Below are positions 9,896-21,022 of a DNA stretch of 64,000 nt, one piece after another. The stretch's first letter is position 1; each line of letters begins with the position of its first letter. The notes under the pieces were generated by a model that saw nothing but the letters and a program-made list of their open reading frames with translations, was not told the origin of the DNA and made no database searches. A program made the position numbers and the translations under genes. The DNA comes from Clostridia bacterium (lineage in GTDB: Bacteria > Bacillota > Clostridia > UMGS1883 > UMGS1540), in contig JAZNQN010000044.1 in NCBI GenBank assembly GCA_045590195.1, forward strand, positions 100,889 through 164,888, written 5' to 3'.

Positions 9896-10232
9896 ACTTG
9901 TAAACAAATATTACGATATTTTACCGATAAATACAGAAAACCCATCACAAAAAATACCGGTATGCTAAATCGCAATCAGATCAGAGTCTATATAGTAAAG
10001 ATTACTTTTACTACTCTTATTGACCATTTCACAAGCTTATGCCCAAGGCATTTTCGGTTATAAAGTAACCAACTTATAAAACTGAGCTTTTAACTCAATC
10101 AATAAGGCAACTAAAGTCGCCAACCCTAAAGGGTTTTTCGGCATTCGACCCGGCTGTCCGTATGGCCTTAGTCTAAAAATAGACGGTCTTAAATCTTACT
10201 TTGGAAACACTGCTCCAATTGAGATCCATTAA

Positions 10233-10261
10233 AGTATAACATAAAGGATTTAAAAAGTCAA
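10233..10261 (-). promoter_or_regulatory. promoter of the pot operon (minus strand)
   Basis: TTGACT, 17-nt spacer, TATACT on the minus strand, about 385 nt upstream of the potA start. Confidence 0.55.
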
Positions 10262-10485
10262 TAAAAAAATATATTCCACCTGCCAACTTCTTCGCTGCCA
10301 AGCGGAATACCTTCATCAAATTTAAGCTCAAGCTCTGCTTTTACTCTTACCGCCGCCGCACTTGTCAACGCATTTGCGTTCCTCATTTCAACTGCTCTTT
10401 CAAAGTATCCTGTGCCGTTTCCAATTTTAAATCTGTGTTCTGCCATCTGAATCATCTTTGGTTGAATACTTGACAATAGCCTCAT
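10258..10485 (-). CDS. orphan 75-aa ORF, possibly a gene remnant; doubtful
   Basis: Protein-like composition (…AEHRFKIGNGTGYFERAVEMRNANALTSAAAVRVKAELELKF…) but no convincing RBS. An antisense promoter lies inside it. Confidence 0.25.
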   Translation of the reverse strand: MRLLSSIQPKMIQMAEHRFKIGNGTGYFERAVEMRNANALTSAAAVRVKAELELKFDEGIPLGSEEVGRWNIFFY

Positions 10486-10498
10486 TTTGTGGTATCAT
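10470..10498 (+). promoter_or_regulatory. strong sigma-A promoter with extended -10
   Basis: TTGACA, 17-nt spacer, TG-g-TATCAT. Confidence 0.55.
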
Positions 10499-10504
10499 TC
10501 TCTT

Positions 10505-10640
10505 TGAAGCTTTCTTGGTATTAGAGCGCCTCTGGCTTTCAGAGGAAGAGCCGTCGACGCCAGGAAAACTTCTTTTTTGATATGTTATTAATTTTATAGT
10601 AAAAAATGCTGTAACCCTAATGGTTACAGCATTTTTTATT
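10505..10640 (+). ncRNA. candidate small RNA (promoter-to-terminator unit of about 135 nt, no plausible ORF)
   Basis: Bounded by the promoter at 10470-10498 and the terminator at 10608-10640. Internal hairpin CCUCUG-gcuuu-CAGAGG. The only ORF is a 5-codon peptide. Confidence 0.35.
10608..10640. terminator. bidirectional rho-independent terminator
   Basis: GCTGTAACC-ctaat-GGTTACAGC flanked by AAAAAA and TTTTTTATT. Ends the + strand unit and the minus-strand tRNA. Confidence 0.7.
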
Positions 10641-10715
10641 GGAGCTGGTGGCGTGAATCGAACACGTGACCTTTTCATTACGAGTGAAATGCTCTACCGA
10701 CTGAGCTACACCAGC
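10640..10715 (-). tRNA. tRNA-Thr (anticodon CGU), 76 nt with encoded CCA
   Basis: Hand-folded: acceptor GCTGGTG/CACCAGC, D-arm GCTC/GAGC, anticodon stem TTTCA/TGAAA with loop CTCGTAA, T-loop TTCGATT, 3' TCCA. One A:C mismatch at the base of the T-stem. A TTGCGA/TAGAAT-like promoter lies just upstream at 10722-10760. Confidence 0.85.
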
Positions 10716-11042
10716 ATTTACATATTTATATATTATATTCTACCAGGAGTAAAAATGCTTGCTCGCAAGGGCATTTTTACAACGCCGTCAATTGGCATAC
10801 GTAGCCTGAAAGGCTGCAAGCAAGTTAAAAACTCGCAGGAGTTTTGCAAAGCAAAAATACATACATGCCAATTATAATGTAAAAACGCATTTTTGTCAAC
10901 AATTTAATTTTTTTACAAAATATTTTTTAACTAAATTGTTACAATATTTTGTACGGATTTTTTGAAAAAATACACTATTTTGTGGAATATTACGCTTTTT
11001 AATTGCATAGATTAAAAATAAATGTTAAGAAATTTTAAAAAG

Positions 11043-11065
11043 TTGTTAAAAAAGTTTGACAAAAT
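11043..11065 (+). promoter_or_regulatory. conserved upstream module, copy 1 (TTGTTAAAAAAGTTTGACAAAAT), containing the -35 of the first NlpC/P60 gene
   Basis: 23-nt identical to 11785-11807. The -35 TTGACA is at 11056-11061 and the -10 TG-t-TATTAT at 11079-11084. Confidence 0.6.
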
Positions 11066-11132
11066 TTAATTTTTATGTTATTATTAGCTTCGTTGCCTGA
11101 TGTGGCAACAGTACAGAAAGGAATGAATTTTG

Positions 11133-11693
11133 ATGAAAAAGATTATTTGCGGCGCAATTACGGCTGTATGTATCACAGTTTTTTCAGCCGCAGGAATATC
11201 TGCCGATAAAATTGTAACAACACCTTCAGTAAACGTTTCGGGCAATGAGGCCGAGGCTGATGGTATTGGAACATATTACATTTTAAATGAAAATAACGAG
11301 CTTAAAACATTTAAAGATTTTATCGACAAGTATATTGAAGAAATGAACACTCCCAAATACGAAGCGGTTTTGGAATATGCAAAAAACTTTATTGGTGTTC
11401 CATATGTTTATGGAGGAAGCACTCCACGTGGTTTCGACTGCAGCGGCTTTGTAAAATATGTTTTAAACAATTTTGATATCAATATGCCCCGTAGCTCTTA
11501 CGAACAGATGAACGTTGGCGAAGCTGTTGATGTTTCCGAAATTCAGCCCGGTGACATATTGTTTTTCCGCGGCGGCGGACATGTTGGTTTTTATGTGGGC
11601 GACGGAAATTATCTTCATGCTCCACAAAGCGGACGAACAGTTTCTATCGACCCTCTTACCCGCGACATTTATTGCGCAAGAAGAGTTTTTTAG
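11133..11693 (+). CDS. NlpC/P60-family peptidoglycan endopeptidase (secreted)
   Basis: Signal peptide. YVYGGSTPRGFDCSGFVKYV Cys-active-site motif and a downstream His typical of NlpC/P60. ATG at 11133 has RBS GAAAGGA; the track start is TTG at 11130. Confidence 0.88.
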   Translation: MKKIICGAITAVCITVFSAAGISADKIVTTPSVNVSGNEAEADGIGTYYILNENNELKTFKDFIDKYIEEMNTPKYEAVLEYAKNFIGVPYVYGGSTPRGFDCSGFVKYVLNNFDINMPRSSYEQMNVGEAVDVSEIQPGDILFFRGGGHVGFYVGDGNYLHAPQSGRTVSIDPLTRDIYCARRVF

Positions 11694-11784: not shown

Positions 11785-11807
11785 TTGTTAAAAAAGTTTG
11801 ACAAAAT
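11785..11807 (+). promoter_or_regulatory. conserved upstream module, copy 2, with the promoter of the second NlpC/P60 gene
   Basis: Identical 23-mer. TTGACA at 11798-11803, 17-nt spacer, TATAAT at 11821-11826. Confidence 0.6.
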
Positions 11808-11856
11808 GAAATAATTATGTTATAATTTTAATTGTTAAATGAGATTGGAGGTATTT

Positions 11857-12483
11857 ATGAGTAAAAAAATATTATCAGTATTATGTATTTTTGTTATTGC
11901 TATTTCTCTTTTTTCTATAAATGTTTCTGCTAATCAATATGTGTATGTAACAGGCGATGCTTTAAACATACGCAATGCCCCTTCAACAGATTCCCCAATT
12001 ATGGGACAGGCTTTGTATGGTGACTCGCTTATTGTTTACGGCAAAGAAGGTAACTGGTACTTAATTTATTACTGGGGCGTTATGGGTTATGTTAGTGGTG
12101 ACTATGTTTCAAATTATCATCCCGATAACAAGCCTACAACCGGCCAGCGAGTTGTGGATTATGCAAAAACCTTTACCGGTATCCCATACGTTTACGGTGG
12201 CAACTCCCCTTCACAGGGATTTGATTGTAGCGGATTTGTAAAATATGTGTTCGCTAACTTCGGTGTTAACCTTCCAAGAACATCTTATTCACAAATGAAT
12301 GTTGGAACCCCTGTTACACGCGATGAACTTATGCCCGGCGACTTGGTTGTTTTCCGTGGCGGCGGACATGTTGGTATTTACTGTGGTGACAATATTTATA
12401 TTCACGCACCTCAGACAGGCAGAACAATTACTGCTGAACCTATGAACAGAGAACTTTACTGTGCAAGAAGACTTGTATACTAA
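11857..12483 (+). CDS. SH3b-domain + NlpC/P60-family peptidoglycan endopeptidase (paralog of the previous gene)
   Basis: Signal peptide, SH3_3-like region (YVYVTGDALNIRNAPSTDSPIMGQALYGD…), then YVYGGNSPSQGFDCSGFVKYV and the catalytic His. Start at 11857 has a GGAGG RBS. Confidence 0.88.
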   Translation: MSKKILSVLCIFVIAISLFSINVSANQYVYVTGDALNIRNAPSTDSPIMGQALYGDSLIVYGKEGNWYLIYYWGVMGYVSGDYVSNYHPDNKPTTGQRVVDYAKTFTGIPYVYGGNSPSQGFDCSGFVKYVFANFGVNLPRTSYSQMNVGTPVTRDELMPGDLVVFRGGGHVGIYCGDNIYIHAPQTGRTITAEPMNRELYCARRLVY

Positions 12484-19408: not shown

Positions 19409-19440
19409 AAAAATAAGCCTTGCAGAGGCTTATTTTTTAT
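19409..19440. terminator. bidirectional rho-independent terminator between ahcY and the antiporter gene
   Basis: AATAAGCCT-tgcag-AGGCTTATT flanked by AAAAAA and TTTTTT. It overlaps the antiporter stop codon. Confidence 0.7.
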
Positions 19441-21022
19441 GGTGTATAATAACATCGTCTTCTTTTATAACTGTTTTGCCGTGAGGAATAATAACTCTGC
19501 CGTTTCGTTTAATCATTATAATAAGCTCGTCAGACTGCGGAAGTTCACTAAGTTTCTTCCCTATTCTTGAATCTCCTTCATCAATATCGTGTTCGCTTAT
19601 TGAAAGCCCTTCAATACTGTCGCCCGATTCGCCGCCTAGAAACAAAGTATCGCGCGGCTTTAAAACAGTTTCGCCGTTTGGAACGATTTTTTCGTGGTTT
19701 CTTATTATAAGGGTTACCATAACCCCCGGCGGAAGGCCAATATTTTTTATTTTCTCTCCAACCCACTTATGTTTTTCAGAAAGCTGAAGTTTTATAAAGC
19801 TTACAGGCAGTTCATAAGTATAGTCGGTAAAAGTTTTCATAACATCGCCGCTTAAATCTGTCATATTAAGTTTTTTGGCGATAAAAGGAAGTAGTGTTCC
19901 CTGAATTAAAATTGAAAACAATACGATAAAGAACACTATGTGAAAAATATCGTTATCAGTTACAACGGGGCTTACCACCGCCAAAATTGCAAAAACAATT
20001 GATGCTGCACCTCGAAGCCCTGACCAGGAAATTAAAAGCTGCTGATTTATTGGGCACTTAAATGGCGTTAATAGTAAAAATACTGCCAACGGTCTTGCAA
20101 CAAATGTTATAAAAAGCGCAATCAAAAGCCCGGGCAGTGCAACAGCATCAAACTGTGAAGGAAAGGCCAAAAGCCCCAGTAAAAAGAAACAAAGTAGCTG
20201 CATAAGGCCAGTTACACCATCAAAAAAGTGAATAAGTGAGCGGCGGTTTCTGATTTCAGTATTACCTAAAATAATACCGGTAATATATGCACTTAAATAT
20301 CCGTTACCGCCAATGCATGCAGGCAAAGCATAGGATATAAGTGCAACTGCAACTATAAACACTGCGTCGAACCCTTCGGTGTGAAAACGATGTTTTTTAA
20401 GAAAAATCATCGAAGCCCATGCAACCAAAACGCCGCATGCCGCACCAAAAAACACCTGTGCAAAAAGCATATATAATATGGAACCTGTTGCCGTTTTACC
20501 CTCCATAAAAGAAAGCACCAAAATGGTAAGCATATAAGAAAAGGGGTCGTTACTGCCGCTTTCCATTTCAAGAAGTGAGGCGGTATTATATTTAAGGCTT
20601 AATTTTTTAGACCTTAATATTGAAAACACCGATGCCGCATCAGTTGAACTTATAACCGAGCCTATAAGAAAGCTCTCAAAAAAGCCTATTTTAAGAACAT
20701 AGTGGCAGAAAAGGCCCACAAATAATGCAGTTAACAAAACGCCTAATGTTGAAAGCAGAATTGACTTTCCCATAACCTTTTTCGCCTGAGAAATTCTAAC
20801 GCCCGCACCACCATAAAACATAATAAAAATAAGAGCTATGGTACAAATCTGCTCGGCAAACTGATAGTTTTCAAAAGGAATTTTAAAAATCCCGTCAGAG
20901 CCAAGTATCATACCAAGTATAATAAAAGCCAGAAGAGCAGGAACGCCGATTTTGCCCGATATTTTATTAAATATAACACACGCCAAAATTACAAGCGCCG
21001 CAATTAAAAGATAGCCAGGCAT
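19430..21022 (-). CDS. monovalent cation:proton antiporter (CPA1/NhaP-type K+/H+ antiporter) with a C-terminal TrkA-C-like regulatory domain
   Basis: About 400 aa of polytopic membrane domain plus a cytoplasmic C-terminal domain. Abuts the stop codon of the amylase gene. Confidence 0.78.
   Translation of the reverse strand: MPGYLLIAALVILACVIFNKISGKIGVPALLAFIILGMILGSDGIFKIPFENYQFAEQICTIALIFIMFYGGAGVRISQAKKVMGKSILLSTLGVLLTALFVGLFCHYVLKIGFFESFLIGSVISSTDAASVFSILRSKKLSLKYNTASLLEMESGSNDPFSYMLTILVLSFMEGKTATGSILYMLFAQVFFGAACGVLVAWASMIFLKKHRFHTEGFDAVFIVAVALISYALPACIGGNGYLSAYITGIILGNTEIRNRRSLIHFFDGVTGLMQLLCFFLLGLLAFPSQFDAVALPGLLIALFITFVARPLAVFLLLTPFKCPINQQLLISWSGLRGAASIVFAILAVVSPVVTDNDIFHIVFFIVLFSILIQGTLLPFIAKKLNMTDLSGDVMKTFTDYTYELPVSFIKLQLSEKHKWVGEKIKNIGLPPGVMVTLIIRNHEKIVPNGETVLKPRDTLFLGGESGDSIEGLSISEHDIDEGDSRIGKKLSELPQSDELIIMIKRNGRVIIPHGKTVIKEDDVIIHHKK

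Follow-up and report, generated by a model that had tools for sequence, protein, structure and literature searches.

Short cis-antisense RNAs of phages, as lambda OOP, paQ and P22 sar, are transcribed from promoters that are either constitutive or regulated. OOP, which is 77 nt long, damps cII, and paQ damps Q. A second group of antisense RNAs is formed by the type I toxin-antitoxin RNAs of Firmicutes prophages (e.g., RatA/txpA and SR4/bsrG), in which a constitutive antitoxin RNA overlaps the 3' part of the mRNA of a harmful gene and of which orphan copies are common. Palindromic units can also lie in frame in genes, as occurs with the Rickettsia palindromic elements and the Neisseria Correia elements, both of about 100–150 bp; Correia elements can in addition carry promoter boxes and act as terminators. 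Finally, integron attC sites are structure-defined, strand-specific imperfect palindromes of variable sequence that are located at cassette boundaries.

The locus described here lies in a 64-kb stretch of a Clostridia genome (the window, a term that refers to the whole stretch analysed). On balance, positions 10470–10578 (+) of the window probably hold a complete copy of an antisense transcription unit that is conserved at phage polyvalent-protein linkers, a judgement that combines high confidence in family membership, a fair likelihood of a discrete RNA and a tentative attribution of antisense repression. The unit resembles OOP, paQ and sar in having its own promoter in or beside a coding region, an intrinsic terminator and full complementarity to a phage mRNA. 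However, it has no sequence or structural relation to these RNAs, occurs up to five times per gene at inter-domain linkers of one giant ORF, and forms one closed multi-branch structure whose sequence dictates the peptide of the opposite strand, its function being proposed by analogy. With the type I systems it shares the arrangement of an antisense sRNA over the mRNA of a harmful gene, often prophage-borne and with orphan copies, but its partner is a linker in a protein of 2,000–4,000 aa and not a small hydrophobic peptide. In the window, the RNA overlaps no small hydrophobic toxin ORF, the opposite strand being the relic of a polyvalent-protein linker, and the neighbouring 65/75-aa ORF is divergent from the RNA and not hydrophobic. 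Rickettsia and Correia elements are recent repeats of high identity, whereas the linker units are highly diverged with compensatory changes and are confined to one gene class and one strand. Like an attC site, the linker unit is a boundary-marking imperfect palindrome that is strand-specific, defined by its structure and variable in sequence; in contrast to attC sites, it has no R/L boxes, is situated within an ORF, has a canonical promoter as well as a T-tract, and is accompanied by no integrase that was seen. Phage cis-antisense RNA is a known kind of element, and it is the embedding in linkers, the repetition within a gene and the dual coding that appear to be new. The features of the unit in the window are as follows, P1 being the closing stem of 14 bp.

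10430–10549 (−): remnant of a phage gene for a polyvalent-protein domain, comprising its 3' end (linker), from tblastn
10470–10475 (+): −35 hexamer TTGACA, from sequence and family logo
10488–10498 (+): TGTG (−16 region, extended −10) and −10 hexamer TATCAT, from sequence and family logo
10506–10578 (+): predicted RNA of about 73 nt with P1, inner hairpin, GAAGAGCC motif and U6 tail, from fold and covariance model
10506–10519 (+): 5' arm of P1, GAAGCUUUCUUGGU, predicted to pair with 10559–10572
10529–10545 (+): inner hairpin CCUCUG-GCUUU-CAGAGG, covarying in relatives
10545–10552 (+): conserved GAAGAGCC motif of type 2 units, with AAGAGCC invariant in alignments A5 and A6
10559–10572 (+): 3' arm of P1, GCCAGGAAAACUUC, predicted to pair with 10506–10519
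10573–10578 (+): U6 tract (TTTTTT) directly after P1, putative tail of the proximal intrinsic terminator
10601–10637 (both strands): bidirectional terminator of tRNA-Thr and putative back-up stop for read-through of the RNA, from sequence and fold

The near-consensus extended −10 promoter that the initial annotation had reported (TTGACA-17-TGgTATCAT, 10470–10498) is confirmed in the sequence: the −35 hexamer is followed by a 17-nt spacer with TGTGG at its end and by the −10 hexamer at 10493–10498, which gives 11 of 12 matches plus the TG. Near-consensus promoters with TG are rare in the window, where 13 sites with at least 11/12 matches occur (1.8 expected from Markov resamples), eight TG-extended sites being found versus 0.2 expected in the same way. 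Several of the other near-consensus sites (437, 4982, 11056 and 11798) lie just 5' of long ORFs. Two of these ORFs are tandem NlpC/P60 paralogues (11056–11693 and 11798–12483, +), each with a near-perfect extended −10 promoter of its own (TTGACA-17-TATTAT and TTGACA-17-TATAAT, respectively). When metagenome contigs were scanned for exact occurrences of the promoter sequence of the unit, no match was obtained. A promoter of the σA/σ70 type with a TGTG extended −10, as this one, would drive the unit from the host RNA polymerase (σA holoenzyme), which would produce a discrete RNA of ~70–80 nt; we infer G10506 as its first nucleotide.

The kind of RNA that this could be is indicated by the opposite strand. 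The 3.8-kb JGI contig L081 is 97.8% identical to the window over 2.6 kb, a similarity that begins at potB and is lost directly after the −10 hexamer, past which the two sequences are unrelated. There, opposite to the promoter strand, L081 contains a 131-aa ORF (P0004) whose last 40 residues (92–131) match the window at 10549–10430 with 67.5% identity over 40 aa (tblastn, E 4e-12), and the window promoter and the first part of the transcript are therefore antisense to a relic of this gene. The L081 ORF is a member of a real protein family (17 database proteins) with the core ...HxFAxDGFxYRTAYFxDxDGxYY..T.SVG.NG.I.TIYNVGK.K, for which 33 metagenome and 59 viral loci (IMG/VR viral contigs) were fetched. 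In most phage contigs this domain is one module in an ORF of 2,100–4,100 aa, and because these ORFs contain PBECR3, LPD3, MuF_C or ART-PolyVal domains (Pfam) they are polyvalent proteins. After the domain, the polyvalent ORF runs on through a linker of ~45 residues, and in nearly every locus, over a GC range of 28–56% and protein identities down to ~32%, a promoter lies antisense to this linker at a fixed position. Typically, TTGACA-17-TATACT-like boxes are followed 5–9 nt later by a closing stem of 10–19 bp, which encloses one or two hairpins, and then by a T-rich tract. Family units were defined by TTGnnn, 17 nt and TAnnnT, often with TGTG before the −10, and by a P1 of at least 10 bp that starts 5–9 nt past the −10 and encloses 40–60 nt with one or two hairpins; the median predicted RNA across the family has 76 nt. 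Units are also present at further linkers within these giant genes, which encode MuF-fused virion proteins with toxin and anti-defence domains; there they follow unrelated domains, in numbers of one to five per gene and always antisense. The low-complexity linker peptide (K/E-rich ... GS ... S-I-P-Q-x3-N-V-K) is for the most part what the reverse complement of the unit encodes, from the terminator tail through the stem to the −10 and −35 boxes. All these units are known from uncultured phage and metagenome sequences, in which they recur in about 100 related loci; searches of INPHARED phages and PLSDB plasmids with the domain and an ART-type neighbouring segment gave no match, so that no cultured system with the domain was found.

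In this phage family, the unit is under selection at the nucleic-acid level and is more than the shadow of a conserved peptide. On the antisense strand, 58 of 76 unique regions reach a promoter score of at least 10/12 (17-nt spacer), whereas no sense-strand counterpart (0 of 76) and no control region (0 of 75) does, and a composite scan for promoter, stem and T-tract gives 114 matches, 110 of them antisense, versus 22 in block-shuffled loci; since the sequences are uncultured and mutually related, these statistics overstate independence. Among 35 unique units, the −35 reads TTG in all 35, followed by A in 30, C in 30 and A in 29, and the −10 has T in 33, A in 35, T in 29, A in 30, any base and T in 35, with an A at the seventh nucleotide past the −10 in 31. 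The 8 nt after P1 hold on average 5.0 T on the antisense strand and 2.3 on the other strand.

The alternative that survives best, although we consider it unlikely, is that there is no RNA function and that the linker peptide is what is selected (e.g., for cleavage, packaging or flexibility), the boxes and the repeat being by-products of peptide, codon usage and spread by recombination. The ORFs stay open across the unit, mosaic joints flank the promoter segment, and the boxes fall on a recurrent peptide, S/T-I/V-P-Q-x3-N/D-V-K/N; the coinciding conserved motif SIPQ...NVK is possibly selected as protein. However, the amino acids at the boxes vary whereas the promoter-critical nucleotides do not. 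On the other strand the −10 always corresponds to two in-frame codons, A-n-T and then A/G-T-A. The residue encoded by the first varies (S, T, N, M or I). Almost every unit has ATA or GTA as the second codon (one has ATG), and where this codon stands for Ile, ATA is chosen without exception, also in ORFs that use it least among the Ile codons (1 of 41 in locus L142 and 3 of 35 in L167). Likewise, the −35 reads (aa)T GTC AAr on that strand, and the G of its TTG is a third-position C that is kept in GTC (Val), AGC (Ser) and TAC (Tyr). Promoter-critical bases are thus preserved by codon choice and not by amino-acid identity. The hairpin GGC-CUUUGA-GCC is kept in all three frames of the sense ORF, where it encodes GSKA, AQRP or GLKGP, and the arms of the stem covary though they encode unrelated residues. 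Synonymous differences per identical-amino-acid codon amount to 0.048 in the linker and 0.259 in the adjacent domain, and amino-acid differences to 0.206 and 0.075, respectively (129 pairs, not independent). Synonymous change is therefore suppressed five-fold in the linker while its amino-acid divergence is about three times that of the domain, an inverted substitution pattern that speaks against this alternative. Moreover, the unit outlives the reading frame in the window and in two other loci, L082 and L112; in L112 (1660–1780) stop codons break the sense ORF in the linker, and the antisense promoter, the stem and a U7 tail are intact.

Evidence for an RNA structure comes from covariation of the stems. 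Because a joint MAFFT alignment across the unit types failed to bring the stems into register, stems were searched per sequence with a matched cross-pair control. The own arms of P1 form 12.8 pairs, versus 8.5 for arms combined across sequences (permutation p ≤ 1e-4). In a model-based alignment 89% of the cells pair, versus 73% when shuffled and 42–56% with a slid partner, and both sides change in 16 of 20 pairs, although this alignment was fitted to the model and leans towards it; RNAalifold on a MAFFT alignment finds 6 of 19 pairs compensatory. These pair statistics draw on related, non-independent sequences. The inner hairpin occurs as CCGGA/UCCGG in L142, CGCC/GGUG in L140, CGCC/GGCG in L167 and UGCCG/CGGCA in L137. 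With regard to the strand, P1 contains 24 G·U against 8 A·C combinations (p = 0.007, symmetric stem finder), the antisense fold is more stable than the sense fold in 19 of 25 units, and a T-tract is found 3' of the stem only on the antisense strand. Together with the promoter, these observations point to an antisense RNA rather than to an mRNA structure.

A second alternative, somewhat less probable than selection on the peptide, is that the unit acts as DNA, as a cassette-boundary site for the exchange of domain modules (attC-like or an in-frame palindromic mobile element), with the boxes serving as protein-binding sites. Units lie exactly at domain boundaries, and their structure is conserved more than their sequence, as is also known for attC sites. 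In addition, a group of near-identical phages (L142–L166, contigs of IMG/VR 3300045988, linker at ~1700–1830) shares a common RNA body that is joined to three 29-nt promoter-segment variants and to at least four different downstream domains, combinations that imply mosaic joints on both sides of the promoter segment. The homology between the window and L081 also stops exactly after the −10 hexamer (10498/10499 in the window, 1170 in L081); beyond the break the window has an RNA body of type 2 and L081 one of type 1, with tRNA-Thr and NlpC/P60 genes as neighbours in the window versus the domain ORF, spoVAC and cotJA in L081. Nevertheless, a recombination site gives no reason for boxes that fit TTGACA-17-TATAAT, for TRTG or for a purine at +7, and both the T-tract and the surplus of G·U pairs show the strand bias that an RNA would produce. 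No recombinase gene was noticed travelling with the units in what was not a systematic search, and joints at linkers are also expected from ordinary recombination combined with selection for intact domains.

That the window copy is part of the antisense family was assessed with a covariance model (R1) built from nine phage type 2 units (GAGCGCC-hairpin-GAAGAGCC; type 1 units carry GGCCUUUGAGCC instead), from which the window and L082, a 1-kb ENA contig, were left out. The model matches the window at 10502–10583 over its full length (positions 1–80) with 41.3 bits and an E-value of ~6e-9, which is rough because the calibration was short, and this is the only significant R1 match in the 64 kb. 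The score of L082 is 47.5 bits, and those of copies within intact genes are 60–94 bits. The window copy thus has the promoter of the family, P1 with its hairpin, the T-tract and a significant covariance-model match, but the open linker-coding segment of the family is absent opposite to it, where ~40 relic codons remain. From its sequence, the window unit is very likely a family member in an orphan context, as are L082 and L112. Searches with tblastx and blastn of window 10200–10620 against all phage loci gave no match; the link between the window and the phages rests on L081 and the covariance model. Elsewhere in the window, several members of the phage domain family give weak tblastn matches at 20200–20400 (−), inside a 530-aa ORF (19430–21022), with E 0.2–6, which are probably due to chance.

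Searches of Rfam over the region, at gathering thresholds and at E ≤ 10, retain only the ldcC RNA and the tRNA, and nothing was found at the unit in 16 family loci. What was found at the window unit lies below threshold and is the VrrA RNA (RF01456), with 31.4 bits over 10497–10638 (E 0.005 in a 1.5-kb search) versus a gathering score of 50. This match is full-length but weak, being carried by the terminator and U-rich stretches, and VrrA is a Vibrio RNA whereas the window is from a Clostridia genome; the candidate was rejected. The literature on polyvalent proteins with antisense RNA, linkers or intragenic promoters yielded nothing relevant, and the linker antisense unit is apparently undescribed in both Rfam and the literature.

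The initial annotation interpreted the locus as a stand-alone unit for a candidate small RNA in which the promoter fires towards a strong bidirectional terminator next to tRNA-Thr, yielding a transcript of about 135 nt. Its parts are present: the terminator, A6-TGCTGTAACC-CTAAT-GGTTACAGCA-T6, is found at 10601–10637 directly 3' of tRNA-Thr(CGU) (10640–10715, −), the internal hairpin at 10529–10545, and the sole ORF before the terminator is limited to five codons (ATG TTA TTA ATT TTA TAG). The palindrome CGTCGACG is likewise present at 10552–10559 (+), but is not conserved even in the closest relative, L082. The promoter-to-terminator unit is thus real, but a nearer 3' end had been missed. In the window, P1 has 13 pairs and one C·A mismatch in the fold, encloses an interior of 39 nt and is followed immediately by U6. 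A simple terminator scanner made no call there; this proximal structure is multi-branched with an AU-rich stem base, unlike a textbook hairpin, and the T-tract is interrupted in many relatives of the unit. The 5' domain of the window RNA alone folds no better than shuffled sequences (z = −1.4). However, because this 3' end is conserved in the family, P1 and U6 are regarded as the unit's own 3' end, and homology favours a native RNA of ~73 nt over one of 130–140 nt as the most likely product. Transcription would stop at U6 (73 nt) or, on read-through, at the tRNA terminator (~132 nt).

The corresponding third alternative, an independent trans-acting chromosomal sRNA of ~135 nt that runs from the promoter to the tRNA-Thr terminator and belongs to a tRNA-adjacent class, is improbable, and more so than a DNA site. 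It is favoured by the presence of both a promoter and a strong terminator and by L082, which keeps the layout of the window with the tRNA included. Against it, the proximal stem and U6 precede the tRNA terminator, the stretch 10579–10600 falls outside the covariance-model match, and the relatives of the unit are all inside phage genes and not beside tRNAs. Furthermore, L081, despite its identity across the pot region, keeps the promoter with another RNA body and has no tRNA nearby, so that the expected synteny with tRNA-Thr does not hold and the unit is not tied to this gene. In a PotA-based genome scan, the closest species representatives (79–82% PotA identity) have no tRNA in the fetched flanks. 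The initial reading is therefore supported in that a promoter, a structured transcript and a terminator form a unit under nucleic-acid-level selection, which recurs in the related loci with covarying stems, but not as regards a tRNA-tied chromosomal sRNA. Between the window and L082, the C·A mismatch of P1 is repaired in L082 and two further changes in the 3' arm retain pairing. Divergence is higher in the RNA body, with ~10 differences over 80 nt, than in its flanks (~3%), which fits decay or patchy recombination as well as function. Upstream of tRNA-Thr, a perfect-consensus promoter (TTGACA-17-TATAAT, 10899–10871, −) lies at ~155 nt, and the leader in between (10716–10899, −) has no Rfam match.

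The RNA had also been considered antisense to a 75-aa ORF (10258–10485, −), but the two are arranged divergently, the first codons of this ORF being overlapped by no more than the −35 region, and the window RNA is antisense instead to the different, decayed reading frame at 10430–10549 (−). The 75-aa ORF, annotated as 65–68 aa in relatives, was rejected as a real gene and is very likely spurious. It has three near-identical matches among 5.8 billion proteins and no Pfam match, and among three strains it shows six nonsynonymous changes, one synonymous change, a 1-nt frameshift and a 3-nt deletion; the mostly nonsynonymous changes and the frameshift led us to treat it as non-coding. An 83-aa ORF (10427–10678, −), likewise annotated by gene callers in relatives, is very likely spurious as well, as it reads through the terminator into the tRNA gene. 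On the same strand, an ldcC RNA motif (RF02440, 68.5 bits) is present at 10138–10189, upstream of the potABCD polyamine transporter, flanked by a TTGACT-17-TGnTATACT promoter (10261–10233) and a terminator-like hairpin (10121–10106). This region (10106–10261, −), whose sequence does not differ in L081 or L082, is a candidate orphan riboswitch arranged like a textbook attenuator. As for the reservation made initially that the region might be antisense to a real protein gene, this is what is found in the relatives, where the gene is the polyvalent-protein linker, and the window keeps ~40 codons of it; such an arrangement does not refute the RNA, but defines its kind.

The weakest alternative, a structure of the sense mRNA that slows ribosomes at domain boundaries or has another cis effect on translation or stability of the giant mRNA, would suit an inverted repeat that folds on both strands and a location at domain boundaries, where pauses fit co-translational folding, but is very improbable given that the G·U excess and the more stable folds favour the antisense strand and that the promoter boxes and the T-tract are left unexplained.

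The reading preferred here is thus that of an antisense unit, which is likely to be transcribed as a discrete RNA. In the proposed mechanism, the ends of this RNA would pair in P1 around the inner hairpin and GAAGAGCC, the paired 5' and 3' ends giving it stability, and the U-tract after P1 should stop transcription. In an intact phage, the RNA would base-pair with the linker segment of the polyvalent-protein mRNA, to which it is fully complementary, and lower the expression of this mRNA. By analogy with known phage antisense RNAs, such repression of the polyvalent-protein mRNA is a tentative proposal that we hold with less than even confidence; a possible use would be the silencing of a toxic late gene, rich in toxin domains, in lysogens. 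The conserved CUUUGA loop contains UUUG, which we take to be YUNR-like, as is typical of antisense loops that pair rapidly. Of the protein gene, no more than ~40 codons are left in the window, which makes the unit an orphan; it is probably still transcribed, but would be without a target in cis, and its present function is uncertain or none. A bolder extension, which we regard as a long shot, considers the linkers as dual-coding 'punctuation' in which the RNA and not the peptide is the main target of selection. The RNAs would jointly silence the late gene in lysogens, and orphans retained in bacterial chromosomes would target linker mRNAs of incoming phages in trans, through the conserved motifs of 9–12 nt (GGCCUUUGAGCC or GAGCGCC...GAAGAGCC), thus conferring an RNA-based superinfection immunity.

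For the window alone the conclusion is a modest one, namely that a prophage gene has left a relic here, which is not a housekeeping sRNA. If the units are transcribed, however, phage genes of a widespread class in gut and rumen would carry hidden antisense RNA genes, which screens of intergenic regions miss because the units lie wholly inside ORFs. In that case, the recurrent 'linker motif' seen in polyvalent proteins would mirror a promoter and a terminator instead of being a protein feature, and would be a clear example of a protein sequence moulded by an RNA gene. In addition, the units would provide a handle on how phages control giant multi-toxin virion proteins, and would bear on why domain modules exchange exactly at linker joints.
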